A stretch of 64,000 nt of DNA from Actinomycetes bacterium (GCA_023461275.1 JAEYMI010000022.1:30829-94828), one strand, 5' to 3'. Positions 595 through 58,911 are shown, counted from the first letter of the stretch. Numbers and translations: made by a program. Notes: generated by a model not told the origin, from the letters alone.

Positions 595-1197
595 TCAGCG
601 CCAGGCGAATACCGGCTGCTCAAGGTCGTCGACCCGGGTATTTCGTCGGCGCAAGACCACCTCGGTGAACTGATAGATGACCGCCGCGGTCGGTGCGTGG
701 ATCAGATCCCCGACGATCGGCAGCTGTATCACCGGGCGCTCGGATTGCGGGATGGTCAGGAATCGCGGTTCGACGAGGAGCTCGTCGAGGGTGACGAAGA
801 ACAGCCGCGCGACCTCGTCGGGGTTGGGGGTGGGCTCGGTGTCGTCGTCGGACCAGCAGACCACCGGCGTGATCACGAATCCCGAGCGTGTCGGATAGTC
901 GTCGAGGAGGCCGACGACCGCGTCCGGGCGCAGGGCGATGCCGATCTCCTCGTGCAGTTCGCGCAGCGCTGCGGTCGGCTCATTCTCGCCGTCGTCGAGA
1001 CGGCCGCCGGGCAGAGCGTACTGAGCGGCGTGGTGTCGCATCGTCGACGGTCGTTTCATCAGCCAGATGCCCTGGTTGCCGTCGCGTTCGGAGATCACCA
1101 CGGCCACCGCGGCGGCTCGGGCGTCGGCCTGCACGGCCCGACGTCGGGGGAAGGCGTCGAGTGCCGAGACGACGTCGGCGCGATCGATGCGGGTCAC
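595..1197 (-). CDS. NUDIX hydrolase (CoA pyrophosphatase-like)
   Basis: 200-aa ORF with Nudix box [24 protein letters not shown]. Its GTG start overlaps the upstream stop (GTGA). Confidence 0.85.
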
Positions 1198-2084
1198 AAC
1201 CTCAGTTCATCACGTTGGGCGCTCCCGGTGGCCTGCGCGGCGGCGAGGTTGAGGTGATAGGAGATGACGGCGAGCGCAGACAGGCCCACCGCCAGGTTCC
1301 ACAGCGCGCCGAAACCTTCGAGCGCGAAGTCGACGAGCGCGTTGGACATGGTGAACACCAGTGCCGCGAGCCGCAAAGACCGCATCGGCCACAGCTTGGT
1401 GGTCCGACGTCGGGCGATCATGGCCGGCAGCGCCAACGCCGCGGTGATGATGCCGCTGACGAACAGGATCCACGCCGCCTTCTCGTTGCGGCTGATCTCG
1501 AGGTAGATCTCCACCTCGCCGAGATCGCGGTTGCGCAGTGCCCAACCGAGCGCCCCGATGACGACCGTGAGCAGCGAGCTCAGCGCCAGCATCCACCCGA
1601 AGAAGTTGGCCCACCACGGGCTGCGCAGGAATCCCGGGATCAGTGCCGCGCCACGGTGCCGCAAGGCCATCAGCCGGTCGGGGGTGTCGACGCTGGCGTC
1701 GAGCATGGTGGCGATGGTGGTGATGACCGTGGAATCGGCGCCGCGGTCGCCGGCGAAGGAAAGGAATTCATGCGCCTGTTGCCGACGACGCTTCGGAAGT
1801 CCGTGTGCCACACCGTCTGCGGCGATCGACGCGGCGTTGGCAAGCGCCTCGGCGACGGTCGGGGCACGGAAATCGCGAACGACACGGGCGATGATCAGGA
1901 TCAGCACGACGAGCAGATACATGATCTCCGCCGACGGCCCGTAGAAATAGTCGTTGTCCTTGGTGACGAACTTGCCGACCTCGTCGAGAAAGAGCCCGAA
2001 ACCGATGCCGCCCAACACAATTGAGGTGATGCGCATCGTCGGGCCGAGGAACAGCCAGCCGAAGACCAGCGCCAGCATCATCAA
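1194..2084 (-). CDS. Polytopic membrane protein, C-terminal reading frame. The N-terminal part appears to lie in another frame up to 2295 (frameshift near 2155-2165).
   Basis: 296-aa hydrophobic ORF. Upstream, the same frame reads [29 protein letters not shown] directly after a TGA. A second frame (GTG at 2295) supplies MTPRTTT...AAVEWFLIFAIGTILVTPR. Confidence 0.7.
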
Positions 2085-2377
2085 CGCGCCACCCCACAGC
2101 GCGTGCGCGATATGCAGAGTGCCGCCGCCGATCTGCGGGTAGCCGGTCAGCCGTAGGTAGGCGCGGGGTCACCAGGATGGTGCCGATCGCGAAGATGAGG
2201 AACCACTCGACGGCCGCGGTCCCGTGGATGCTGCGGATGACGACGGCGGTCGTGCGCGGGTGCGTCGTGGGTGGGGTCGTCGTGCGTGGGGTCACGTGTG
2301 GATTATGGATCGTGAATCGGACATTGTGCGTCGACTTCGTCGATCCCGGGGGTTGAGGCCTGAGGTCGGGGGCGGGC

Positions 2378-2430
2378 GCTGGTTCCCGCGAACATGACTA
2401 CGGTCGCGGGAAAGAGTTGAGGTCGCGGGA
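2378..2430. repeat. 53-bp direct repeat, copy 1 (contains TTCCCGCGA-N12-TCGCGGGAA hairpin)
   Basis: GCTGGTTCCCGCGAACATGACTACGGTCGCGGGAAAGAGTTGAGGTCGCGGGA. It differs at one base from the copy at 3045-3097. Confidence 0.9.
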
Positions 2431-2655
2431 ACCTTCTCGCTGCGCGTCGCGCGCAACAACGGGCAGGTTGTCGGGCGGGTTCCCCACCGCCTCGATGAAT
2501 GCATGACGTCTGAGGCAGCTATACCCGCGTCCACGTACAGATGAGGTGCCCGGTCCGACGGATTCGAGCGTCGGGGGAAGGCATTCGCAAGGTCCTCGAC
2601 CGCAATCAGCCACCGGCGTTAAAGCGAGAATAGAACGTGCCAGAAATCAATAGAA

Positions 2656-2690
2656 AGAGCCACCGGCCGAATACTTCGGTCGGTGGCTCT
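2656..2690. terminator. Bidirectional intrinsic terminator hairpin
   Basis: AGAGCCACCGGCCGAA-TAC-TTCGGTCGGTGGCTCT has a 16-bp stem with 1 mismatch. T-rich tracts follow on both strands. It sits just downstream of the 23-aa ORF. Confidence 0.7.
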
Positions 2691-2708
2691 TTTATTGTCG
2701 CTCTGCAA

Positions 2709-2780
2709 TCAGAGGCTTCCGATTCCGGTGAGGATGACGGTGAGGAACTCGTTGATGGCGGCGAAGATGTCATGAATCAT
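2709..2780 (-). CDS. 23-aa hydrophobic/acidic small peptide MIHDIFAAINEFLTVILTGIGSL
   Basis: ATG is preceded by GGAGGG at 7-12 nt. The stop is followed by the strong hairpin terminator. The ORF is embedded in a segment of about 40% GC. It is below the ORF-track size cutoff. Confidence 0.5.
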   Translation of the reverse strand: MIHDIFAAINEFLTVILTGIGSL

Positions 2781-2831
2781 GGTAATGCCCTCCGTGAGTT
2801 GATTTTTCGCGTGATGTAGTCGCGCGACCGC

Positions 2832-2837
2832 AGCCTA
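2832..2837 (-). promoter_or_regulatory. Candidate -10 hexamer TAGGCT for the small-peptide transcript
   Basis: The minus strand reads TGTTAGGCT about 50 nt upstream of the ATG at 2780. The same hexamer recurs as a putative -10 upstream of phoU and the GT2 genes. Confidence 0.3.
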
Positions 2838-3044
2838 ACAGAACGTCGAGAAAAGATCACTCCAGCCTTTACACCGCACGATATGGTTAATCGATCGTGA
2901 ATTTCGAGGGAATATCCACCTGCCATTGTTTCAACATTAATATCGGACATAGGTGACTAAATCACCCACGAACTGCGCACTACAGCGAGCTCGCGGGGGG
3001 TTCGCCGGCGTTCGCGATGGTCGGGCCATGTTCCCGCGACCTCA

Positions 3045-3097
3045 GCTGGTTCCCGCGAACATGACTACGGTCGCGGGAAAGAGTTGAGATCGCGGGA
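3045..3097. repeat. 53-bp direct repeat, copy 2
   Basis: GCTGGTTCCCGCGAACATGACTACGGTCGCGGGAAAGAGTTGAGATCGCGGGA. It is preceded by a partial copy (CATGTTCCCGCGACC, 3027-3041). Confidence 0.9.
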
Positions 3098-3137
3098 GTT
3101 TTCCCGGCGGCAGCTCGCAGGCGAACCCACAGCGCGA

Positions 3138-3731
3138 TCAACGCACTTCGATGGCCATCCGCAGCAATTCGGCAACCTGCTCGGCACGCTCGGGCGCCGA
3201 CGCCCGACCGGTCTGGACCATGGCGATCAACAACCCCAGCAAAATCGATTCCAGGGCACCTGCGACGCGATCGCGATCGATGTCCGTCCGCACCCGGCCG
3301 ATCTCCTGGCCCTTACGCAACGACACCTCGAGCTCGGATCGAAGTCTCGTGGACACCTCACCCGTCGCCAATCGCGGCAACAGTTCGGGTTCGTTGCCGC
3401 AGAGCACGCGCATCACCAACGGGTAGTCCACCATCCGGGTCGCGAATTCGGACATGATCGCCAGCCAGTAGCCGTCCCCTATCGGCTGCGCTTCGCCCGC
3501 GAACACGGCATCTGCGAGGAGCCCCGCCTGCCGGTCGTAGGCGGCGACGAAGAGCTGTTCCTTGTTCGCGAAGTGGAAGTAGACCGCGGATGGGCTGATC
3601 GATAGATCGCGAGCCACCGCCGATACGGACGTCTGGCGAAAGCCATGTTCGGCGAACGCAGCTGCTGCGGCGTCGAGAATCAGGTCGCGCGTCGACCCGC
3701 TCGCCCCCGCATCGGTTCGCCCGGTAGCCAT
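3138..3731 (-). CDS. TetR/AcrR family transcriptional regulator
   Basis: N-terminal HTH RDLILDAAAAAFAEHGFRQTSVSAVARDLSISPSAVYFHFANKEQL. The start is taken at MATGRTD; the ORF extends to a GTG at 3776. Confidence 0.85.
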   Translation of the reverse strand: MATGRTDAGASGSTRDLILDAAAAAFAEHGFRQTSVSAVARDLSISPSAVYFHFANKEQLFVAAYDRQAGLLADAVFAGEAQPIGDGYWLAIMSEFATRMVDYPLVMRVLCGNEPELLPRLATGEVSTRLRSELEVSLRKGQEIGRVRTDIDRDRVAGALESILLGLLIAMVQTGRASAPERAEQVAELLRMAIEVR

Positions 3732-3813
3732 CTGGCCAGCGTAACGGTGCAATGTCCGAATCACGGCGAGCCCCACGCTTGCACAACTGAACGATCTGCT
3801 GAATCATTCAGTC

Positions 3814-5040
3814 ATGCTTCATCGCCTTCGCGCGTCGTACCTGCTCAAGCCGCGCCTGCTCTTGGCGCCACTCGTCGCGATATCCGTCATCGCAGCGTCG
3901 ATAGTGCTGCCCGGCACCCTCGCCCAGGCCGAACCACGACTGCCCACCCTGCCCTTCGGGGCACCGCACGTCACGGTGAACGTCAACAAACCGGGCGCGC
4001 CCGGCTACGTCTTCTACACCACCGGAATCGCTGCGGCACTACCACTTCCGATCTCCGTCCCCGGTATCACGACAACCAACGACGCCGCCGTCATCGCCGA
4101 CAAGAGCGGTCGCGTCGTCTGGCGCTATGTTCCGCCCGCCGGTGACACCGTCGCGAACTTTCGCACCCAGATGTTCAACGGCCGCAAGGTGTTGACCTGG
4201 TGGCAGGGTGCCGGCGCCAACGGCCACGGCTCCGGTGTCGACTACATCGCCGATACTCGCGGACACGTGATCAAGACCCTGACACCGGGTAACGGGCTGG
4301 CGTCTGACGTGCACGAGTTCCGACTCACACCGGATGGCCGGGCCCTCATCACGTCGTACGTGCCGGTCACCGCAGACCTCACCTCAGTCGGCGGACCCAA
4401 GAACGGCACCATGCTCAATTGCGTTGCGTCCGTGATCGATGCGAACTCGGGCCGCGTCCTGATGCATTGGTCGGCGATGGATCACATCCCCGTCACCGAC
4501 ACGTCGATGCGGTACACGGGCCTGCCGGGTTTGGCGACCTTCGACCCGTTCCACATGAACTCCATCGCCCTCGACCCGTCGGGCAATCTGCTCATCTCGT
4601 TCCGAAACCTCAACGCGCTCTACAACATCGACGCGGTCAGCGGCGCTGTCAACTGGCGACTCGGCGGCAAACGCTCGACGATCCGCGTGGCACCGGGCGC
4701 CGAATTCTTCGGCCAGCACGACGCCGAATACGCGAATCCGACGACGATCCGCCTCTTCGACAACAACATCAATGTCAGCAACCAGCTCGGCGACTCCAGC
4801 ATCAAATGGATTCACATCGACCCGACGCACTCGGCCGCGACACTGGTCCGCAGCCAACGACACCCGGCCGGCCTGGCCACCGCAGCCATGGGCAACGCGC
4901 GGGCGCTTCCCAACGGCAACACCTTCGGCGGCTGGGGCACCTCGCCGCACATCTCCGAGTTCTCGCCGTCGGGTGAATTGATCTACGACGCAACGCTTCC
5001 CGTGGGCACCTACCGCGCCTACCTGGATACGCTGCCGTAA
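3814..5040 (+). CDS. Secreted arylsulfotransferase (ASST)-family beta-propeller protein
   Basis: 408 aa with a signal peptide (LVAISVIAASIVLPGTLAQA). ASST-like motifs include HEFRLTPDGRALI, FDPFHMNSI and FGQHDAE. Confidence 0.6.
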   Translation: MLHRLRASYLLKPRLLLAPLVAISVIAASIVLPGTLAQAEPRLPTLPFGAPHVTVNVNKPGAPGYVFYTTGIAAALPLPISVPGITTTNDAAVIADKSGRVVWRYVPPAGDTVANFRTQMFNGRKVLTWWQGAGANGHGSGVDYIADTRGHVIKTLTPGNGLASDVHEFRLTPDGRALITSYVPVTADLTSVGGPKNGTMLNCVASVIDANSGRVLMHWSAMDHIPVTDTSMRYTGLPGLATFDPFHMNSIALDPSGNLLISFRNLNALYNIDAVSGAVNWRLGGKRSTIRVAPGAEFFGQHDAEYANPTTIRLFDNNINVSNQLGDSSIKWIHIDPTHSAATLVRSQRHPAGLATAAMGNARALPNGNTFGGWGTSPHISEFSPSGELIYDATLPVGTYRAYLDTLP

Positions 5041-5077
5041 CCGTCCTGGCGTGGCGTGAATCCGGCGCCACAACGAG

Positions 5078-5104
5078 AAAAACCACCTGTCACCAGGTGG
5101 TTTT
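5078..5104. terminator. Bidirectional intrinsic terminator
   Basis: AAAAACCACCTG-TCAC-CAGGTGGTTTT lies between the ASST stop and the tRNA-Phe 3' end. Confidence 0.75.
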
Positions 5105-5111
5105 CTACAAG

Positions 5112-5689: not shown

Positions 5690-5765
5690 GCCCCTTTAGC
5701 TCAGTTGGTAGAGCTACGGACTTTTAATCCGCAGGTCCTCGGTTCGAGCCCGAGAGGGGGCACCA
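5690..5765 (+). tRNA. tRNA-Lys (TTT), CCA encoded
   Basis: GCCCCTTTAGCTCAGTTGGTAGAGCTACGGACTTTTAATCCGCAGGTCCTCGGTTCGAGCCCGAGAGGGGGCACCA. Confidence 0.95.
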
Positions 5766-5766
5766 C
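5750..5766. repeat. attL-like 17-bp direct repeat (3' end of tRNA-Lys)
   Basis: CCGAGAGGGGGCACCAC; identical to 8477-8493. Confidence 0.85.
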
Positions 5767-5792
5767 AAACCGCCTGGCAACGGGCGGTTTTT
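5767..5792 (+). terminator. Intrinsic terminator after tRNA-Lys
   Basis: AAACCGCC-TGGCAAC-GGGCGGTTTTT. Confidence 0.6.
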
Positions 5793-5880
5793 GCGTTTGC
5801 GACCCCTGTTACACACGTAGCAACCCGGCATTGCCCCGGCACCCGGGGGGCGCCGCGCCGGGTTTGTCGGTATCGATCTC

Positions 5881-5886
5881 TAGGAT
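5881..5886 (+). promoter_or_regulatory. Candidate -10 (TAGGAT) giving a leaderless or near-leaderless transcript starting at ATG 5894
   Basis: A TAnnnT hexamer lies 7 nt upstream of ATG 5894. Confidence 0.3.
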
Positions 5887-5893
5887 GTACTTC

Positions 5894-6634
5894 ATGCCGT
5901 CTTCGCTGATCACGGACGCATTAGGGCAACCCGACGATGCGTCTCAAGAACCCGCACGCAACCCCGACACCTTGCCGTCCACCGCAGACCCGAGCGGCGA
6001 GTGCCCTCGGTGCGGACGAGTGAGTAATTTCCATGTGGGAGTGACACTCCCCCTCGTCTTGCGATCTTCGTCATTCAGTGATTCCCCATTCACACGCGAG
6101 CGCGGAGTTGAGCTTGTCTGTCAAGGCTGCGGCGACTCGACCATTGTGATCGAGGAATCGCCGGGCGGTCCCTTCAGCAGATTTCGGCCGACATTCTGGT
6201 ACCCGAAGCCAGGGCACCTGCAGGACACAACTGATGTGCCGGACCCGATTGCGGGAGCGTTCGACGAAGGCGCACGGTGCGTGAGTGTCGACGCCCCAAA
6301 TGCCGCAGTTGCTATGTTTCGCAACGCACTCGCTCAAATCGTGCAAGACAAAGGCAGCGAAGAAGCCAAGAAGAAGAACACTCTCAACGAGGCGGTACAG
6401 CAAATGGTGGCCGACCGCACTCTCCACGACGGCTTCAAGGAATGGGCAGACCACGTTCGAAAGGTCGGCAACGCGGGTGCACATCAAGAATCCTGGTCGG
6501 AGATACCGATCGACCAAGCTCAAGAATTGTGCGAGCTGGTCAAGCATCTGATCGACACGCTATACATCCAGCCTGGGCGGGTCAGTCGTGCGATGCCCGC
6601 CAGAAAGCGGTCTGCGACCGCTACCGGAGACTGA
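5894..6634 (+). CDS. Zn-ribbon plus DUF4145-domain protein
   Basis: Two CxxC pairs (CPRCGRVS ... CQGCGDS) are followed by DUF4145-like AAVAMFRNALAQIV...WADHVRKVGNAGAHQES...ELVKHLIDTLY. An alternative ATG lies at 5885. The 5501 ORF-track start is rejected because it overlaps tRNA-Lys. Confidence 0.7.
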   Translation: MPSSLITDALGQPDDASQEPARNPDTLPSTADPSGECPRCGRVSNFHVGVTLPLVLRSSSFSDSPFTRERGVELVCQGCGDSTIVIEESPGGPFSRFRPTFWYPKPGHLQDTTDVPDPIAGAFDEGARCVSVDAPNAAVAMFRNALAQIVQDKGSEEAKKKNTLNEAVQQMVADRTLHDGFKEWADHVRKVGNAGAHQESWSEIPIDQAQELCELVKHLIDTLYIQPGRVSRAMPARKRSATATGD

Positions 6635-6896
6635 CCACCGTGCGGCCCCGATCCGGATTCGGAACTGCCACAGGATGACCGAGCGGGGCGCTCTTACCGC
6701 CTTCGGCCTCGGAGATGTAGTCGGCGTAAACGTTCAGCGTCGTAACGAAACTCGCGTGCCCGAGCCATTTAGACACCTGCATGTAGTGCTCGCCCGCCGA
6801 CAAACTGTTCGCTGCGGAACTGCGGCGCAGGTCGCGCCAGCGGGACGCACTGTAAGCGACGTGCCGCAAGGACCGAGCAGAGCCACAGTCGGCCAG
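6621..6896 (-). pseudogene. Tyrosine recombinase/integrase, C-terminal remnant only
   Basis: SRWRDLRRSSAANSLSAGEHYMQVSKWLGHASFVTTLNVYADYI matches the HxLRH...LGH...Y catalytic C-terminus. The frame is closed by a stop at 6897-6899 and no N-terminal domain is present. Confidence 0.7.
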
Positions 6897-7107
6897 TTAT
6901 CGGAGCTGATGGGCTCGCTCCGCTTGCATGTGGCGGCGACCCCGTCAGCCTAGGCTTGGCGCCGGGCCCTCCTGCCGATGTTAAGCGCCTGCCGTTGGCC
7001 ATCGATCGGTCACATGCTCGCCGGGCCGGTCACGGCGTGTCCCGATAAGACTGGTATCCATCTGGCGGCGATGTGACCCTCCCATGCATCTCGCATCCAT
7101 GCCGCGA

Positions 7108-7113
7108 TAGTCT
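7108..7113 (+). promoter_or_regulatory. Candidate -10 (TAGTCT) for the two-gene cassette
   Basis: A TAnnnT hexamer lies 10 nt upstream of ATG 7124. Confidence 0.25.
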
Positions 7114-7123
7114 CCGAGACCTG

Positions 7124-7585
7124 ATGACTCCGAACCCTGGGAAGAAGCAACGCCGACTAGCGGACATGGGTGTTGAGCCCGCGAGGTTCAAGTTCGAGCG
7201 ACGCGACGAAGCCGAGCTGATTCTCGACTCTCCCATCCCACTTTCCCCAGAAGGTGACCACCTGCACCTGCGGCAGTGGTGCTACCGAGGGAAAATTGTC
7301 GACTTTGCCATCATGCAGTACCTCACCCCGTCGCATCCCGACAACTCGGGCTCGGATGGTAACTCAGATGTAGCACGAATAGATACGTCTCACAGCGAGG
7401 TGCACAAGCATCAGTACTTTCGGGACGGACGCGAGCAAGTCCGATCTGTGATCAAATCACTACAGGATGCCGATAGTCTGGAACATGCCGAGGAGATGAT
7501 AGATGCATGCTTCGACGCCTGTAACGATGACATGAGCGAGCACTGGGTCGACCATTTGGACACTTGGAGAGGGGATACGCCATGA
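7124..7585 (+). CDS. Hypothetical protein (islet cargo gene A; His-rich core ARIDTSHSEVHKHQY)
   Basis: The ORF-track frame is 7073-7585. The start is chosen at MTPNPGKK. The stop overlaps the next start (ATGA at 7582-7585). Confidence 0.6.
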   Translation: MTPNPGKKQRRLADMGVEPARFKFERRDEAELILDSPIPLSPEGDHLHLRQWCYRGKIVDFAIMQYLTPSHPDNSGSDGNSDVARIDTSHSEVHKHQYFRDGREQVRSVIKSLQDADSLEHAEEMIDACFDACNDDMSEHWVDHLDTWRGDTP

Positions 7586-8034
7586 GCGGTAACCACGACC
7601 GCATTCGCGGTCGCCTTGCCACCGTGCGGATCTTCACCGCCATGATGCGCAACGACAACTTCCGCCGATCCTTCGCCGAACGTTCCGGCTGGACCCCAAA
7701 CTCGCCAATTGTGCCGTGCGAGTCAAACACGCTGTTTGGCGAAGTGTATGAGATGGCCATACCTGCCCTCGATGAGTCCGGCGCCACCGTTGCAGCGATC
7801 CCAGTGCTGGCGATGACGCCACAGACGGACGACTCCGACGACAAACTAACACTGTCATTGACTGTTGTGAGTCTACGAAAGCACGTTAGCGGAGAAGCGA
7901 CCCCTGAGGATGCAATCGACATCGACAGCATCAGCCACGAGGTCACAATGGCACAGGTCTGTGAAACTCTTGCGCCAGCCAAGAAGTGGGACATATCTGA
8001 CTGCGTGGCGCCGACGTCAACGACCGGTGCCTGA
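7582..8034 (+). CDS. Hypothetical acidic protein (islet cargo gene B)
   Basis: Starts MSGNHDRIRGRLATV; the ORF-track frame is 7564-8034. It is translationally coupled to gene A by a 4-nt overlap. Confidence 0.6.
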   Translation: MSGNHDRIRGRLATVRIFTAMMRNDNFRRSFAERSGWTPNSPIVPCESNTLFGEVYEMAIPALDESGATVAAIPVLAMTPQTDDSDDKLTLSLTVVSLRKHVSGEATPEDAIDIDSISHEVTMAQVCETLAPAKKWDISDCVAPTSTTGA

Positions 8035-8113
8035 GCTCGTGTAGTTAGGGCGCGTCGCATCGTTCAGATCGTCTTCGAACCGGTCCGATACATGATGTTC
8101 AGTGTCATCGACG

Positions 8114-8147
8114 CCTGAACGCGCAGAACATCCGCTGCGCGTTCAGG
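8114..8147 (+). terminator. Perfect 13-bp stem-loop downstream of the cassette
   Basis: CCTGAACGCGCAG-AACATCCG-CTGCGCGTTCAGG lies 80 nt after the stop at 8034. There is no clear U-tract. Confidence 0.45.
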
Positions 8148-8476
8148 ACGCTCGCATCGCTGACGCGCCATAGGTCGTGCGGTGTGAACCTTCGAAGGAC
8201 AGCTCGAATCTATACGCGCCGATCGAACTAACCATGATATGCTGGCGTCTTTGACCCGTATCGGATTTTGACCTCGTTCGCTCGGGAACAGCAGTCCACC
8301 CTTTCAGCCCTGCCAAGTTCGCGACGTCGGTGCACCGATGCCTGAACATCCCACATCGACGTCTGATGGAATCCAACGCGGACGTCCATCCACCACAGCA
8401 GATGAACGTCAGGACCAGGATCAGCCCCCAATGATGTCGCCTGCAGCGTCAACGAGCGCTTCCGACCCGCGCGGTA

Positions 8477-8493
8477 CCGAGAGGGGGCACCAC
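8477..8493. repeat. attR-like 17-bp direct repeat
   Basis: CCGAGAGGGGGCACCAC; identical to the tRNA-Lys 3' end. Confidence 0.85.
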
Positions 8494-8573
8494 GCAGGCA
8501 GCGATGTCGGGTGTTCATTTGGCGTAATCCGCTTTACCCGCGACGGATCCGAAAGCAAAAGTAGGATCCGAGA

Positions 8574-10769
8574 GTGGCTGTGCAGAATTCGCAATCTTCG
8601 ATACTCAAATCACTTCGGGTGTACGACCCGGGCCACACCTGGCTGATTTACGCGACGTCGACGACGATCGCGACGGCGTTGGGGATTCTGGTTGCCCATT
8701 TCGTCATCGCAGCCACCCACGGACCCGACATCCTGCTGGTGACCGGCGGCATCATCGGCATGGTCGCATTCGGCGCGACCGGTGACGTCACCGCGAAGGC
8801 CCGCTGGCTGACGTCGGTGACCGTGATCGTCCCGGCGCTGGCCGCAGCAGCTCTGGCCGTCGTCCTGACGCATCACTCCCCCGCCGAGATCGTCGTAGCG
8901 GTGCCACTGGCCGGATTCGGCATCTGGGTACGACGATTCGGTTGGCGCGGCCTGGCCGTGGGTGGCGTCGTCTTCTTCGCCTACCTGATGGCGATCTTGG
9001 CCATGCGCGAGCCCGGGGCGAACATGCATCAGATCCTCCTCGTCGTCGGAGGCGCGCTTGCCTGCGGTGTGTTTCTGCGGACGGTGATGCTGATCGAGTT
9101 CCCGACACGTCGACTACGGCTTCACCTTCGCCAGTTTCGGGCGTCGTGCGCCGAAGCACTCGAGCGATCCCAACGACCCGGAACCGACGCCGAGATGCTG
9201 GTGCCGGTAAGCCACCTGCCCGACCTCACGCTGGCCATGGACGGATGGCTCCACCAGTTCGACGTCACATCGCTCGGCGTGGACCCGAACAAGCTGCGCC
9301 GCAGTATGTTCGACGCACAGAGCGCAACCGAGCTCGCATGCGAACAACTGCAGTCGCTGACGAGAGCCGGCGTCGATCCGCATGCCGATCCCACCCTCTC
9401 CGACGTCCTCGACACGCTGATGGCACTTGTCCGCGGCGAGCCGTCGAGCCACGACGCCACCGCTGCAGAAGCCCTGGCACGCTCGACGATCGCCACGGTC
9501 GATCCGTCGACTCCGCTCGGCCTGGCAACACTTTTCGTGTCCCGCGCGGTACTGGCACATCTCGACGTCGACGACGCAGCACACGCCGATCCCAAGCCTG
9601 CCGGCCCCAACCCTGCCGATCCCGACCTCGCTGACCCCGACCCGGCCGAAACCGCTCCACCCCAACCTGATTCGACCGATACAGACATCCCGCACCCGGC
9701 CACGCACGCCGCCACCGACACTGCGGCCGTCGTGCGGTGGTGGGATCACATGCGGCCCACCTCCCGGATGGCCATTCAGGTGATGGCAGCGACGGCGATC
9801 GCAGCGGGTGTGGGACAGGCGATGGCGGCCGGACGCTGGTATTGGGCGGTGATGACGACGTTCATCGTGTTCATGACCGCCGCAACCCGGGCCGACGTCC
9901 TGACGAAATCGTCATGGCGCGTAATCGGAACCGTGGTGGGGGTCGCGTTCGGTGCGGTGGTGGCAATCCTGCTCGTCGGTCACCCGCTCCCGCTGTCCAT
10001 CCTCTTCCTGGTCTGCGTGTTCTTCGGCTACTACTATCAGGGCTCCAATAACGGCATTCCCACCATCTTCTTCACCGTTCAGTTCGCGGTCATCTACGCG
10101 CTCTTGGGTTTCCATAACTGGACCCTGGCCTTCGTTCGGCTCGACGAAACCATCGTGGGCGCGATCATCGGCGTGATCTGCGCCTACCTCGTCACGTCGA
10201 AACGATCCGATGGCGCGGTGGCCGCCAGCGTCGACAAATACTTTGCGGCACTTGATCATCTGATCACCTCCTGCGGTGACGCACAGACCACCGCGAATCA
10301 GACGCAACCTGTCGTCGACGCGGCGATCACTCTCGACAACGCGCATCAGGCGGTCCGCTCGACGCTGTCGAACATGGCGGCGGCGATGCTCGTCGGGACC
10401 GGCGCACGACGCCGCGCTCGGTCAGTGCACCTCGACCGCCTCACGCGAAGTGCGCACGTGCTGGCGCAGACATCGGCTGCGCTGTCTGCCGACCCATCAC
10501 TGGTGTACACCGGGTCCGATGCCGAAGTGGTGCGGACTGCGGTCCGTCGGCTGCGAGACGACGCCGAGGACCTCCATCAGATCTATCTGGAACGACAACC
10601 CGCGGCCCCCGCCGAACCACGTGAATCGTTGGCGCAGTTGCTCAGTGGCGTCGACGCGCGACCGGACACCCCCCGCGGGGCAGGCGTCGCGGCGTCGGTC
10701 CGACTGGACCATCTCCTCCGAACGCTTCCGGACACCGTCGCCGCTCCCGCTCTTTCCAGCCGGGAATAA
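8574..10769 (+). CDS. FUSC-family (fusaric acid resistance/aromatic acid exporter-like) membrane protein
   Basis: 731 aa with two hydrophobic halves. The second half contains RWYWAVMTTFIVFMTAATRADVLTKSSWRVIGTVVGVAFG, typical of FUSC/YccS. Confidence 0.8.
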   Translation: MAVQNSQSSILKSLRVYDPGHTWLIYATSTTIATALGILVAHFVIAATHGPDILLVTGGIIGMVAFGATGDVTAKARWLTSVTVIVPALAAAALAVVLTHHSPAEIVVAVPLAGFGIWVRRFGWRGLAVGGVVFFAYLMAILAMREPGANMHQILLVVGGALACGVFLRTVMLIEFPTRRLRLHLRQFRASCAEALERSQRPGTDAEMLVPVSHLPDLTLAMDGWLHQFDVTSLGVDPNKLRRSMFDAQSATELACEQLQSLTRAGVDPHADPTLSDVLDTLMALVRGEPSSHDATAAEALARSTIATVDPSTPLGLATLFVSRAVLAHLDVDDAAHADPKPAGPNPADPDLADPDPAETAPPQPDSTDTDIPHPATHAATDTAAVVRWWDHMRPTSRMAIQVMAATAIAAGVGQAMAAGRWYWAVMTTFIVFMTAATRADVLTKSSWRVIGTVVGVAFGAVVAILLVGHPLPLSILFLVCVFFGYYYQGSNNGIPTIFFTVQFAVIYALLGFHNWTLAFVRLDETIVGAIIGVICAYLVTSKRSDGAVAASVDKYFAALDHLITSCGDAQTTANQTQPVVDAAITLDNAHQAVRSTLSNMAAAMLVGTGARRRARSVHLDRLTRSAHVLAQTSAALSADPSLVYTGSDAEVVRTAVRRLRDDAEDLHQIYLERQPAAPAEPRESLAQLLSGVDARPDTPRGAGVAASVRLDHLLRTLPDTVAAPALSSRE

Positions 10770-55844: not shown

Positions 55845-58208
55845 ATGACCCGGATGACACGCGCTGTCGTGGAGAACGCACACCTCGACCCGTTGGACTC
55901 GGCGTCAACATCTCTGAGTCCTGTCGAAAAGGCCATCGATGACAACGCGGAGAACATGCACCGCACGGTTCACGGCTTGGCATGGACAGGGACGGGGCGA
56001 ACCGAGGCACTAGGACGGGCGGATGCCGAGCGGACGCAGATGCGACGAGTCAGCGATGCCGCTAGCGACCTGGCGAAGGCCTTCAGCCACGGTAAGCACA
56101 CGATGGCGCCAATGGTGGACTCGCTCAAGACCTCTGCCGCACATCTCACCGAAGCCGACTTCAATGTTGCGCAAGACTGGACCGTCACCGACGGTTACCA
56201 GTACGGGCTCGCCGAGGCCACGTATGCGGACAATCCGCAGAAGATGCGCGAGCTTCACGAACTCCAACGCAAGCGTGCCGAAGAAGCCAAGAACGCCACG
56301 GTTCGGCTGCAGAGGCTTGCGCATGAACTAGAAGCCGCCGACGACGACACCGCCAAAGCGATCCGTGCAGCCAAGCACCGGCTCGAAGCGATGGCACCCG
56401 CGAGCAAAGCCATGAGTTGGAAACAGGCCAAGCTGGACGTGGAGTCGCTGCGCGATGGGCACCCAACTCCCGAACAATTGGCGCGATTGCGCGCGGCTAC
56501 TCATCTGAGTCCGCAGGATATGGCGTCACTTGCAGCGGGCAAGCCTACGAACATTTCGCAAGGGCAATTCGACTACCTGCAGAGCATGATGCGCCAACTA
56601 CACGGCGTCAGCCTGCAGGACATGCTCGACATTAACAAGCAGGCGCCCGGGCTGCTCGGCGACGGGTTCCGGCTCATGTCCATGCCGAACCTCCAGACCG
56701 AAGGCGGCAGCCGCGGTGGGATGGACGAACTGCCGATCCCGATTCGGACGCTACTTCAGCAGAATCCGATCCTGGTGACCACGCACGTACCGAACACACT
56801 GGGCGCACCAATCCAGGCCATGACCGCCATTCCCCGACTCGGTGACTTCAATGCTCTCAACACACTTCTCGGTGAGGGAAACCAGAATCTTCGGCTCGGC
56901 GCCGACGTGGATCGTGGGCTACTCAAGCAGGCATCTGAGATTTCCTCCGTAATGGGGCCGCGGGGAAGTCACGACTATTACGGAACCTACGACAATCGCC
57001 AGGATCTCGGCTCGATTCGGCAGACGGTTGACGCGATGCTCCACAACGGCGGAGGAGACCACCAAGCGGTCGCCGATTTCCTCACCGGAGACAACATGGC
57101 GTCCACAGTGACACCGGGAAGCCACTACCACGCCGATTCACACCTGCGGGGGCTGCTCGAGCAAAAGTGGATGCCCGATGAGCTGGGCGCCAAGTCGATG
57201 ATGCACTGGATTGGTGGCGCAGCCGACGACCACGGTTACGAGAGTGTCCTGGGCGGCCGGTCGGCTGACGCTCTGGCGAAATACATGGTCGCCCATCACG
57301 ATGAACTGGCCTACATCGGACCCAAGGGCGGACCGTACTCATCCCTTGGAATTCTCAACCCTGAACTCACGCAGGAAATCTCACGAAGCCTATCGCCGTA
57401 CTTCCCGAACTTCGCCGGCTATCCGAGTGACCTGTTACTCAACCACACTGCCGGCCCGCTCGCCGACACTGACGATTTCGGGAAGTTGATCGGCCTGCTG
57501 GGTACTGATAAGAAGGCCGGCGACATCGCTATTCTCAGCGCAACGTCGTGGGAGAACTATGCGGCCCACGAATACGGCGAGGATCCGATGAACGTCGGAC
57601 TGGGAACCTCCGCAAGTCACTTACACCAGTCCGTCGCGGCCGGAATTGGCGACGCGCAGAAGATTCTGCAATCAAACCAAGAATGGACGTCGGAGGTCGA
57701 GTACGACGATAAGCAAAAGAAGGCGGCCAACATACTTGGGTTTCTGCAGGGCCTCAACATTCCCGGCCTCAGCGACGCCGCTACGATGGCCGGCCCCGAG
57801 ATCGCAGACCAGTACGCCGGGCAGAAACCTGGCGACCCCTCGCTATCGCATTCTTGGCAAGGCCAGATTGAGGGCTACAACAAGACGTACGACGGTATGA
57901 CGGGTGGCGTCGCGCGACAATACCAGATTGCGAGCGGATATCTAGAGGACCACCCCGAGATTATTGATCGACACTGGAAGGCAGATGACGGGTCTGATAT
58001 TAACTTCTTCCAAAAAGACAAAAATGGACATGTTGAATTCAACCCAGCTGCTATTCGAAAGAATTCAATTGATTTCGAAAGATTCCTCAAGGAAAAAGGT
58101 GTTCCGCTATCGGACTACCTCCAGAGTTACGATGCGCGAACAGCAGGAACAACGATTGACAACGAAACTCGCCAACTCCCGAGTGTCGCCACCAAACCGC
58201 CGGGATAG
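55845..58208 (+). CDS. Large putative T7SS substrate with an N-terminal WxG-type helical domain
   Basis: 787 aa. A WTG (WxG) lies in a helix-turn-helix N-terminus (HGLAWTGTGRTEALGRADAE). GC is reduced, and the last 250 nt or so are 37% GC. Confidence 0.6.
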   Translation: MTRMTRAVVENAHLDPLDSASTSLSPVEKAIDDNAENMHRTVHGLAWTGTGRTEALGRADAERTQMRRVSDAASDLAKAFSHGKHTMAPMVDSLKTSAAHLTEADFNVAQDWTVTDGYQYGLAEATYADNPQKMRELHELQRKRAEEAKNATVRLQRLAHELEAADDDTAKAIRAAKHRLEAMAPASKAMSWKQAKLDVESLRDGHPTPEQLARLRAATHLSPQDMASLAAGKPTNISQGQFDYLQSMMRQLHGVSLQDMLDINKQAPGLLGDGFRLMSMPNLQTEGGSRGGMDELPIPIRTLLQQNPILVTTHVPNTLGAPIQAMTAIPRLGDFNALNTLLGEGNQNLRLGADVDRGLLKQASEISSVMGPRGSHDYYGTYDNRQDLGSIRQTVDAMLHNGGGDHQAVADFLTGDNMASTVTPGSHYHADSHLRGLLEQKWMPDELGAKSMMHWIGGAADDHGYESVLGGRSADALAKYMVAHHDELAYIGPKGGPYSSLGILNPELTQEISRSLSPYFPNFAGYPSDLLLNHTAGPLADTDDFGKLIGLLGTDKKAGDIAILSATSWENYAAHEYGEDPMNVGLGTSASHLHQSVAAGIGDAQKILQSNQEWTSEVEYDDKQKKAANILGFLQGLNIPGLSDAATMAGPEIADQYAGQKPGDPSLSHSWQGQIEGYNKTYDGMTGGVARQYQIASGYLEDHPEIIDRHWKADDGSDINFFQKDKNGHVEFNPAAIRKNSIDFERFLKEKGVPLSDYLQSYDARTAGTTIDNETRQLPSVATKPPG

Positions 58209-58911
58209 GTATTGGAAAGCATCCTGCGCGGCACTACTCCTCCTAATCATGAGCGGATGCGGGCCATCAGAACCGCACGCCGGGAGTTCATCGGCGGCGG
58301 TCTCGAGCGCGGAAACAGGAATTTCCGAAGGGGTCCATTATCGCGCGCGCTGGGCGGACGGCCCGATCGACTTGATGTCGCCAACAGGAACGTTTATCCG
58401 CGCCTTCACCGAATCGAATTTCCTTGCAGTTATTGAGTCCAACGATGCCAAAGCATTCCCTGGATATGCTCGAGCCAATCGCGACCGAGAAATCCGACAA
58501 TACGGCCAAAACAATGTTTTTAAAAAGACCGTTGATATCGGCATGAAACTGATACATGTCGACAACCAAAACGGCGATACAGCAGTTGCACGAGTCTGCT
58601 ATGACGGTATCGGTCAATTAGACTATTCGGACTACCCGCCGATGCTCAGCCCACAGAACACCGAGACACGCGGCACTCGAATGTTCCTCATCACTTTCCA
58701 CCGCACCGGCACCACCCCGCCGCCGAATCAACGCGGACCACTCTCAGGCCCACTGACCAACGTCTTCGGCGGCTGGTACGTCACCAAACTCACCAGCACC
58801 TGGCACGACGACGACCCCACCAAACCACACCCAAAGGCCGAATGCGGCACCATGCCCGACCTCACCAAACCCGGAACCTCGACGCCCGGTTGGCCCAAAC
58901 GCGGCATATGA
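58183..58911 (+). CDS. Lipoprotein, tandem paralog 1
   Basis: The GTG start gives MSPPNRRDRYWKASCAALLLLIMSGCG (lipobox). It overlaps the 3' end of the 787-aa gene by 26 nt. Confidence 0.65.
   Translation: MSPPNRRDRYWKASCAALLLLIMSGCGPSEPHAGSSSAAVSSAETGISEGVHYRARWADGPIDLMSPTGTFIRAFTESNFLAVIESNDAKAFPGYARANRDREIRQYGQNNVFKKTVDIGMKLIHVDNQNGDTAVARVCYDGIGQLDYSDYPPMLSPQNTETRGTRMFLITFHRTGTTPPPNQRGPLSGPLTNVFGGWYVTKLTSTWHDDDPTKPHPKAECGTMPDLTKPGTSTPGWPKRGI

Follow-up and report, generated by a model that had tools for sequence, protein, structure and literature searches.

A candidate membrane-peptide gene in a variable, palindrome-bounded slot beside a tRNA cluster of Gordonia

Introduction

What kind of element is the segment at positions 2378–3097 of the 64,000-nucleotide stretch of DNA analysed here (the window), and does the 23-codon open reading frame that it contains give rise to a peptide? 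A sequence-only reading had described an AT-rich segment of 0.6 kb between direct repeats and had proposed a recombination-prone cassette with a minimal expression unit for a hydrophobic peptide. To our knowledge, gene callers miss small peptide genes, hardly any of which has been characterised in mycolate-containing actinobacteria. The host is a Gordonia, a genus that forms foam in wastewater; the closest relatives of the membrane protein encoded next to the segment (71–78%) all come from Gordonia.

Results

Two copies of a composite palindrome bound the segment

The 53-nt direct repeats (2378–2430 and 3045–3097) indeed differ at a single position, and their similarity runs on to 62 nt at 92%. 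The hairpin TTCCCGCGA-N12-TCGCGGGAA that had been noted in each of them occurs exactly twice in the 64 kb (2383–2412 and 3050–3079), against 0.01 occurrences expected by chance in a window of this length, and the third motif, TCGCGGGA, was also found in both copies. The 9-mer TCGCGGGAA is present seven times in the 64-kb window, six of these inside the two repeats. The right copy contains a fourth motif (3031–3039), which was absent from the earlier description. We refer to the composite palindrome as E, to its copy next to the TetR gene as E(A) and to its copy next to the membrane-protein gene as E(B). Two relatives were compared with the window: L014, an ENA metagenome contig that aligns to window positions 5766–3031 and 2431–1, and X1, a metagenome run holding a relative with 91–92% flank identity. 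The palindromes and their surroundings are as follows.

1194–2295, minus strand: conserved gene for a 366-aa membrane protein, left flank of the slot.
2378–2432, no strand: E(B), truncated palindrome on the side of the membrane-protein gene; its low-coordinate outer arm is missing in the window strain.
3030–3097, no strand: E(A), full composite palindrome of 67–68 nt, 41 nt past the TetR stop codon and identical in L014.
3138–3731, minus strand: conserved gene for a TetR-family regulator, right flank of the slot.
3814–5040: arylsulfotransferase gene, divergent from the TetR gene, neighbour to the right of the slot.
Beyond the arylsulfotransferase gene: tRNA-Phe, tRNA-Asp, tRNA-Glu (minus strand) and tRNA-Lys (plus strand).

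Of the four TTCCCGCGA-type motifs in E(A), two are direct and two are inverted. The layout of E is that of two inverted sites (11-8-11) flanked by two more copies of the same motif, with a motif spacing of 18–21 nt and a variable number of units. The right copy has 27-nt arms that are 85% complementary around a 12-nt loop, and E folded as RNA reached −51.6 kcal/mol (z = −7.35). In L014, E(B) is complete (67 nt) and has an additional 19-nt unit, and the E(B) region of X1 has 72 extra letters and includes the outer arm. Because both relatives retain this arm, its loss from the window is, on this comparison, a strain-specific deletion. E(A) starts with CTCCCGCGAT and E(B) with TTCCCGCGAC in both the window strain and L014, and the two copies in the slot are in direct orientation.

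The earlier reading would have been undermined if the 53-mer were a common genome-wide repeat unrelated to the segment. In the 64-kb window it occurs only at the slot, but diverged copies exist in metagenome X1, where at least four E-like sequences (85–90%) lie on other contigs and in other contexts. Scanning JGI metagenomes with the E pattern returned just four unrelated look-alikes, and scanning IMG/VR returned none; a search of the palindrome against Rfam gave spurious sub-threshold miRNA matches alone.

Genomic setting

The membrane-protein gene is frameshifted in the window by a 1-nt insertion in a G run near 2165. Logan contigs of SRR13400335 match the window at 100% identity and share the frameshift. 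The gene is intact in both L014 and X1. When genome contigs were searched with the arylsulfotransferase, the sole match was from Mycobacterium talmoniae (58%). In a locus of a Gordonia MAG (L007), the tRNA cluster abuts the orthologue of the membrane-protein gene directly on its upstream side, and the TetR–arylsulfotransferase pair sits elsewhere in the MAG, without E. Since the cluster adjoins the orthologue there, the whole of 2296–5110 in the window is, judged by gene order, an islet inserted beside tRNA-Phe. The exact motif AATGTCCGAWTCACG is common to the upstream regions of the TetR and membrane-protein genes, which suggests that the two form a common regulon.

The slot holds different cargo in closely related strains

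The flanks of L014 (TetR, arylsulfotransferase and membrane-protein genes) are 98.2–99.4% identical to those of the window, and both E copies are present (6635–6701 and 9318–9384), but the DNA between them, 2.6 kb long, is unrelated to the segment and lacks the peptide. The proposal of a recombination-prone cassette between repeats was strengthened by this 98–99% identical strain with the same repeats and a wholly different cargo, while the expectation that the peptide would be conserved wherever its surroundings are conserved failed in the same strain. Because L014 conserves the surrounding DNA and lacks the peptide, the latter is, from this distribution, accessory and not core. The L014 cargo contains the following genes.

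A 278-aa nucleotidyltransferase of the GSU2403/NTP_transf_8 type (28.9 bits against a cut-off of 26.3), with weak similarity to AbiEii.
A 362-aa partner, with weak similarity to AbiEi_2 and to wHTH domains.
A fragment, read by inspection only as a C-terminus of the DJ-1/PfpI type, with no Pfam match.

The 278-aa/362-aa pair is a predicted AbiE-like type IV toxin-antitoxin module, and its DNA is 85.5% identical to that of genes inside a Mycobacteroides abscessus island. We considered that E might be a site borne by the cargo and discarded this idea, the M. abscessus copies of the pair being without E.

In X1, the peptide segment lies on a contig of 696 nt with E at its boundaries. Over 689 nt, this cassette differs from that of the window by 30 substitutions (identity about 95.6%), and the 38-nt core of E is present in X1 at about twice the single-copy depth, as two copies would give. 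The distribution of the cassette does not follow how closely the flanks are related, and in X1 the coding DNA of the flanks has diverged more than the cassette. Since L014 swaps the cargo while the more distant X1 shares the peptide, the findings fit an accessory cassette that may have been gained, lost or exchanged in a polymorphic slot of the tRNA-adjacent islet. On the TetR side, the cargos of the window and of L014 part exactly where the palindrome ends. The locus was absent from X4 and X5, which belong to the study of X1 and look like metagenomes of other communities, and neither an empty slot nor an excision product was seen among the loci compared.

Composition and parts of the interior

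The low GC content that had first drawn attention was confirmed at 2881–2960 (30 G+C in 80 nt), but the background against which it stands is 65.2% (window) and not 67%. The interior as a whole (2431–3029) averages 55.8% GC and is really low (42–52%) only at 2651–2960; 2432–2650 has 62% GC. From low to high coordinates, the interior contains the following parts.

2431–2460, no strand: 30-nt segment adjoining E(B), 27 of its 30 positions identical to L014 9268–9297.
2461–2653, no strand: part of the cassette with normal GC content (62%), without a credible ORF.
2654–2692, minus strand: strong terminator-like hairpin with 18-nt arms, 94% complementary, and a 3-nt loop.
2709–2780, minus strand: ORF of the 23-aa peptide, ATG at 2780, stop codon at 2709–2711, product MIHDIFAAINEFLTVILTGIGSL.
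2788–2793, minus strand: Shine-Dalgarno sequence GGAGGG, 7 nt upstream of the ATG and unchanged in X1.
2832–2840, minus strand: putative extended −10 element TGtTAGGCT (TAGGCT at 2837–2832), read from the sequence.
2876–2953, minus strand: AT-rich tract with an apparent decayed duplicate of the start region of the membrane-protein gene, found by local alignment.

The segment next to E(B) is the sole interior sequence common to both alternative cargos, and 2470–2569 is invariant in X1. The duplicate in the AT-rich tract consists of ATGTCCGAT, a 41-nt AT-rich insert and TCACGATCGATTAACCAtatcGTG, to be compared with ATGTCCGATTCACGATCCATAATCCAcacGTG at 2324–2293, and this split copy corresponds to the GTG of the membrane-protein gene together with the sequence directly before it. 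The local alignment alone has a P value of about 0.04, and a colinear 9-mer adds weight to it; the duplication apparently continues past E, in decayed form, to the start of the membrane-protein gene. Comparison of the cassette DNA with phages and plasmids gave no match.

Anatomy of the mini-gene

The minimal expression unit read earlier on the minus strand (−10 hexamer, ribosome-binding site, ORF and terminator) is anatomically sound, with each part at the position given for it. On the mini-gene, simple consensus scanners detected no promoter and no terminator; we treat the −10 element as putative because the scanner did not call it. Transcription from this element would start near 2825 and yield an mRNA of about 180 nt. 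Positions 2813–2858 are invariant in X1. The hairpin at 2654–2692 begins 16 nt past the stop codon of the ORF and, because it is T-rich on either side, appears to be a bidirectional terminator-like element. In X1, a compensatory C/G insertion (behind 2659 and 2684) adds one base pair to its stem.

The predicted transcript folds better than shuffled sequences (z = −3.64). In the centroid structure the terminator alone gives most of the folding energy and little else is kept, and the fold contains no alternative, anti-terminator pairing. A consensus scan of both strands gave no promoter, and the only plus-strand TANNNT suitably placed for an antisense RNA, TATTGT at 2693–2698, is changed in X1. 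Among the RNA sequencing runs searched, none contained the locus. The leader sequence GTCGCGCGAC was considered as a specific operator and dropped, since it is no more frequent than expected by chance. No Rfam match to the RNA of the segment was found, even at E-values up to 1.

The ORF is probably translated

The GC content of the ORF is 48, 30 and 83% at the first, second and third codon positions (11, 7 and 19 of 23), and this is the only one of the 18 ORFs in the segment with the pattern GC3 >> GC1 > GC2. The predicted peptide (23 aa, 2.49 kDa, pI 4.35) has a net charge of about −2.4, no basic residues, no signal peptide and a penultimate serine (Ser22). Its GRAVY score is 1.41, its mean Eisenberg hydrophobicity 0.58 and its hydrophobic moment 0.44, a value matched by just 0.02% of shuffles; the polar residues H3, D4, A7, N10, E11, T14, T18, G21 and S22 all lie in a 120-degree arc. 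Because of the GGAGGG 7 nt upstream, the contrast between GC3 and GC2 and an amphipathic helix beyond what shuffling gives, the ORF looks translated, and we consider translation somewhat more probable than its absence.

In the comparison with X1, 2707–2811 (ORF, Shine-Dalgarno sequence and leader) is without differences. A substitution-free ORF of 72 nt has a probability of about 0.04 at the rate of the cassette, a figure that counts only with the ORF specified beforehand and that comes from one relative, and of 0.002 at the rate of the flanks; the 105-nt substitution-free run, again in one relative, could arise by chance when 30 substitutions are scattered over 689 nt.

No homologue of the peptide was found in Pfam (E-values up to 1), NCBIfam, PADLOC or PDB sequences, nor by tblastn against plasmids and phages, nor with a class-degenerate codon pattern of the peptide in JGI metagenomes and IMG/VR. 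A 41-aa in-frame extension had no homologue among 1.84 billion protein representatives, and no paralogue turned up in the window or in the other loci retrieved. We also compared the peptide with the first helix of the membrane protein, of which it might have been a diverged copy (IH..AA..FL resemblance); the resemblance was not significant (P = 0.06–0.23).

Discussion

A proposed exchangeable cassette with a toxin-like peptide

In our judgement there is about an even chance for the reading in which the segment, an accessory cassette in an E-bounded slot, carries a translated mini-gene for a membrane-active, toxin-like peptide. The slot is delimited by the two E copies, one just past the TetR gene and the other just before the membrane-protein gene, and its content is polymorphic; its cargo would be swapped or lost through recombination at these copies and at adjacent homology. 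RecA-type or Campbell-type recombination would be the likeliest route, because the duplication appears to reach, decayed, beyond E to the start of the membrane-protein gene; such an extended duplication fits homologous integration of the Campbell type better than a dedicated site-specific system. The stable hairpins of E may double as bidirectional terminators or insulators.

The cargo would be self-contained, comprising an extended −10 element, a 45-nt leader, a strong Shine-Dalgarno sequence, the 23-codon ORF and a 19-bp terminator. Its product would be an acidic, strongly amphipathic alpha-helix, with His, Asp, Asn, Glu, Thr and Ser on the polar face, that could insert into membranes and oligomerise, and it might act as a toxin-like or permeabilising accessory product comparable to a type I toxin. 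We favour a toxin-like role because the peptide is predicted to be an amphipathic membrane helix on an accessory cassette, and circumstantial support comes from the toxin-antitoxin pair in the same slot of the sister strain. A bolder version appears very improbable to us: in it, the E palindromes would be dedicated cassette-exchange sites of the Corynebacteriales, through which small toxin or defence modules would be shuttled in and out of the chromosomal slot, and the peptide would be, as one such cassette's product, the first actinobacterial type I-like membrane toxin or a new and smallest class of mycoloylated mycomembrane peptide.

Alternative explanations

The evidence for the mini-gene can also be read at the level of RNA, the ORF being fortuitous and the product either a small RNA (about 180 nt) that stops at the terminator or nothing at all, in decaying, functionless foreign DNA. 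The block that is invariant in X1 takes in synonymous sites and the untranslated leader and fits RNA constraint or recent transfer equally well, the transcript folds better than its shuffles, and the conserved, compensated terminator speaks for transcription rather than translation. We nevertheless find this unlikely, because most of the folding energy is that of the terminator, no Rfam family matched even at E-values up to 1, and the ideally spaced Shine-Dalgarno sequence, the order GC3 >> GC1 > GC2 in a context of 52% GC and an amphipathic periodicity reached by 0.02% of shuffles all speak against a non-coding RNA. Were the ORF translated, its peptide could instead serve the membrane-protein gene, as the leader peptide of an attenuator that includes the hairpin or, in a variant, as a small subunit or regulator of the membrane protein. 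Such a role would agree with the order on the minus strand (promoter, short ORF, terminator and, 360 nt further on, the membrane-protein gene) and with the presence of AATGTCCGAWTCACG upstream of both this gene and the TetR gene. In L014, however, the membrane-protein gene is intact behind an unrelated and oppositely oriented cargo, and so needs no such leader; in the window strain it is frameshifted, the transcript shows no anti-terminator pairing and the stable E(B) hairpin intervenes between terminator and gene. We give this arrangement hardly any credence.

A different function is suggested by the lineage of the host. The product could be a leaderless peptide of the PorA/PorH/ProtX kind, exported to the mycomembrane, possibly O-mycoloylated at Ser22 by a MytC-type enzyme, and forming or modulating a cation-selective channel. 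Gordonia is one of the mycolate-containing Corynebacteriales and the peptide is small, acidic, amphipathic and free of a signal peptide; PorH and ProtX are modified at the penultimate residue without a sequence motif, and MytC orthologues have been reported in Gordonia (PMC5310785). What makes such a channel peptide improbable is that no Pfam family, PorA and PorH included, matched at E-values up to 1, that 23 aa is far below the 38–57 aa of known examples, that a housekeeping porin would be expected in a strain of 98–99% identity from which this gene is missing, and that the groEL2/ppk2 neighbourhood seen at Corynebacterium porHA is absent here. An apparent similarity of the peptide to PorA was noticed. 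As to the palindromes, E could be an att-like site for site-specific recombination and the slot an acceptor similar to that of integrons or pdif modules, with its recombinase encoded elsewhere, so that E would be more than a REP/TRIT-like hairpin exploited by homologous recombination. This would account for different cargos between the same two sites, for a TetR-side junction exactly at the palindrome end, for the maintenance of the CTCCCGCGAT and TTCCCGCGAC variants together with the 30 nt common beside E(B), as if cassettes brought a half-site with them, for the 11-8-11 inverted sites and for the restriction of E, within the 64 kb, to the two copies that bound the slot. We rate it as quite unlikely, however: no recombinase gene was found at or beside the slot, the toxin-antitoxin cargo occurs in M. 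abscessus without E, GTTCCCG departs from GTTRRRY, the core of integrons, a putative promoter belongs to the peptide cassette itself, diverged E-like copies occur in other contexts in X1, as in dispersed REP-like families, and the duplication apparently continues past E, which favours homologous integration.

Significance

We view the peptide gene as a candidate orphan small membrane-peptide gene on a variable islet. As a candidate the locus is clean, being anatomically complete, with a product predicted to be strongly amphipathic, and being swapped for a toxin-antitoxin module between palindromes. Should the peptide prove to be expressed and active on membranes, Gordonia would join the hosts of type I-like toxins or of PorA/ProtX-like envelope peptides, and the E slot would offer a simple natural model of palindrome-mediated cargo turnover. 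Without expression, the locus would be an ordinary variable islet beside a tRNA cluster.

Comparison with known systems

Integrons and the pdif modules of Acinetobacter resemble the slot in that variable cargo, including toxin-antitoxin pairs, lies between short conserved palindromic sites. Unlike in integrons, there is no integrase and no GTTRRRY core, and a putative promoter lies within the cassette; E has GTTCCCG and CGGGAAC at its ends, where attC has RYYYAAC and GTTRRRY, and in place of intI and attI with promoterless cassettes, the neighbours are the TetR, arylsulfotransferase and membrane-protein genes. The pdif modules differ in that E bears no likeness to the 28-bp dif site and that the bounding sites are direct. 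Flanking direct repeats with alternative occupancy between strains are shared with attL/attR pairs, but no integrase or recombinase gene was found in the L014 cargo, the flanks or the cassette itself (0.6 kb).

Like REP/REPIN and TRIT elements, E is a GC-rich, bidirectional palindrome just past a stop codon, with inverted motif doublets and with diverged copies elsewhere, and it conforms to the description of REPINs as extragenic palindromes whose inverted doublets form a long hairpin. A genome has 147 copies of TRIT, which reportedly occurs in Mycobacterium alone and overlaps stop codons (PMC3152330). REP elements number tens to hundreds per genome; of E, two copies lie in the 64 kb, both of them at this slot. 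E also differs in its four motif copies per element with a variable number of units. No RAYT (Y1 transposase) gene was seen among the selected window ORFs that were scanned.

With regard to the peptide, the phenol-soluble modulins and delta-toxin are similar in length (about 20–26 aa), in having no signal peptide and in their very high helical hydrophobic moment. They differ by phylum, by lack of homology and by their setting, neither a Pmt-type exporter nor an agr-like context being seen here. PorA, PorH and ProtX of Corynebacterium glutamicum are likewise leaderless, small, acidic and amphipathic peptides in a member of the Corynebacteriales, and the penultimate serine of the present peptide has the position of the mycoloylation sites of PorH and ProtX. 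In C. glutamicum, PorH is mycoloylated at Ser56 of 57 and ProtX at Ser37 of 38 with no consensus motif, and ProtX itself belongs to no family (PMC5310785). The present peptide is shorter (23 against 38–57 aa), has no Pfam match and is encoded in an accessory location.

The type I toxins (TisB, DinQ, Ibs, Fst and BsrG) differ from our candidate in that a peptide without basic residues (charge about −2.4) is unusual among them; it has no sequence relative, and the scans gave no sign of an RNA antitoxin, antisense or overlapping. A full type I system would require such an RNA, which base-pairs with the toxin mRNA. We know of no validated type I toxin-antitoxin system in Actinobacteria. The candidate nevertheless belongs with the small (<60 aa), hydrophobic peptides predicted to target the membrane, and the likeness to the type I toxins extends to a stand-alone gene for a helical peptide of less than 60 aa, a strong Shine-Dalgarno sequence, a terminator of its own, and a location on accessory DNA, in a slot that holds another toxin-antitoxin module in the sister strain.

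Genes flanking the slot and a shared 15-mer

Relative to the locus of a Gordonia MAG (L007), window positions 2296-5110, which comprise a TetR-arylsulfotransferase gene pair and the slot (the region between the two copies of palindrome E, whose cargo differs by strain), form an insertion between tRNA-Phe and a membrane-protein gene. Beyond the tRNA cluster, where L007 has PPK2 and SDR genes, the window instead carries a FUSC-family gene together with an ORF of 492 aa. The nearest arylsulfotransferase among GTDB species representatives was that of Mycobacterium talmoniae, at only 58%. A palindrome, CTGAATcATTCAG, lies immediately 5' of the arylsulfotransferase ATG; it is separate from an exact 15-mer, AATGTCCGAWTCACG, which occurs in only two copies within the 64 kb. 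The features concerned are as follows.

1194-2295, minus strand: gene of a conserved 366-aa Gordonia membrane protein, carrying one inserted nucleotide within a run of G (2160-2170)
2311-2325, minus strand: AATGTCCGAWTCACG, copy 1, upstream of the membrane-protein gene
3751-3765, plus strand: AATGTCCGAWTCACG, copy 2, in the TetR/arylsulfotransferase intergenic region

Both copies of the 15-mer were found at equivalent positions in L014, a metagenome contig with flanks 98.2-99.4% identical to the window. The 15-mer may be an operator that ties the TetR regulator to the membrane-protein gene across the variable slot.

The 1-nt insertion splits the membrane-protein gene into ORFs of 175 and 296 aa. 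The identical frameshift was present in a Logan contig of SRR13400335, a run whose contigs match the window at 100%. The gene is unbroken both in L014 and in X1, a metagenome run with a relative 91-92% identical in the flanks.

Other compositionally distinct segments

A 2.7-kb islet (5750-8493; GC 53-60%) contains DUF4145, DUF7718, and small ORFs. Identical 17-nt copies of the tRNA-Lys 3' end, in direct orientation, flank it (5750-5766 and 8477-8493). L014 lacks this islet. The islet looks like a small element integrated at tRNA-Lys, without an integrase. The GC minimum of the window is found at 57500-58600 (34-41% per 100 nt, about 51% over 600 nt), a stretch in which a 787-aa ORF ends and a 315-aa ORF starts.

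Features similar to the slot components in other bacteria

On L005, an unrelated metagenomic contig of 70% GC, a palindrome of similar build to E lies right behind a stop codon (120-190). It consists of CTCCCGCGA motifs, two direct and two inverted, around an 11-nt loop. The four-motif architecture based on TCCCGCGA may recur in other high-GC bacteria.

In L014, the slot holds an AbiE-like nucleotidyltransferase/antitoxin pair (6729-8685). This pair shares 85.5% DNA identity, and up to 91% protein identity, with one within a genomic island of Mycobacteroides abscessus. The island additionally contains a REP_ORF2-G2P initiator, HTH_17, UDG, DUF4365, and a Type ISP restriction enzyme. The comparison points to a recent transfer of the pair between the two genera.
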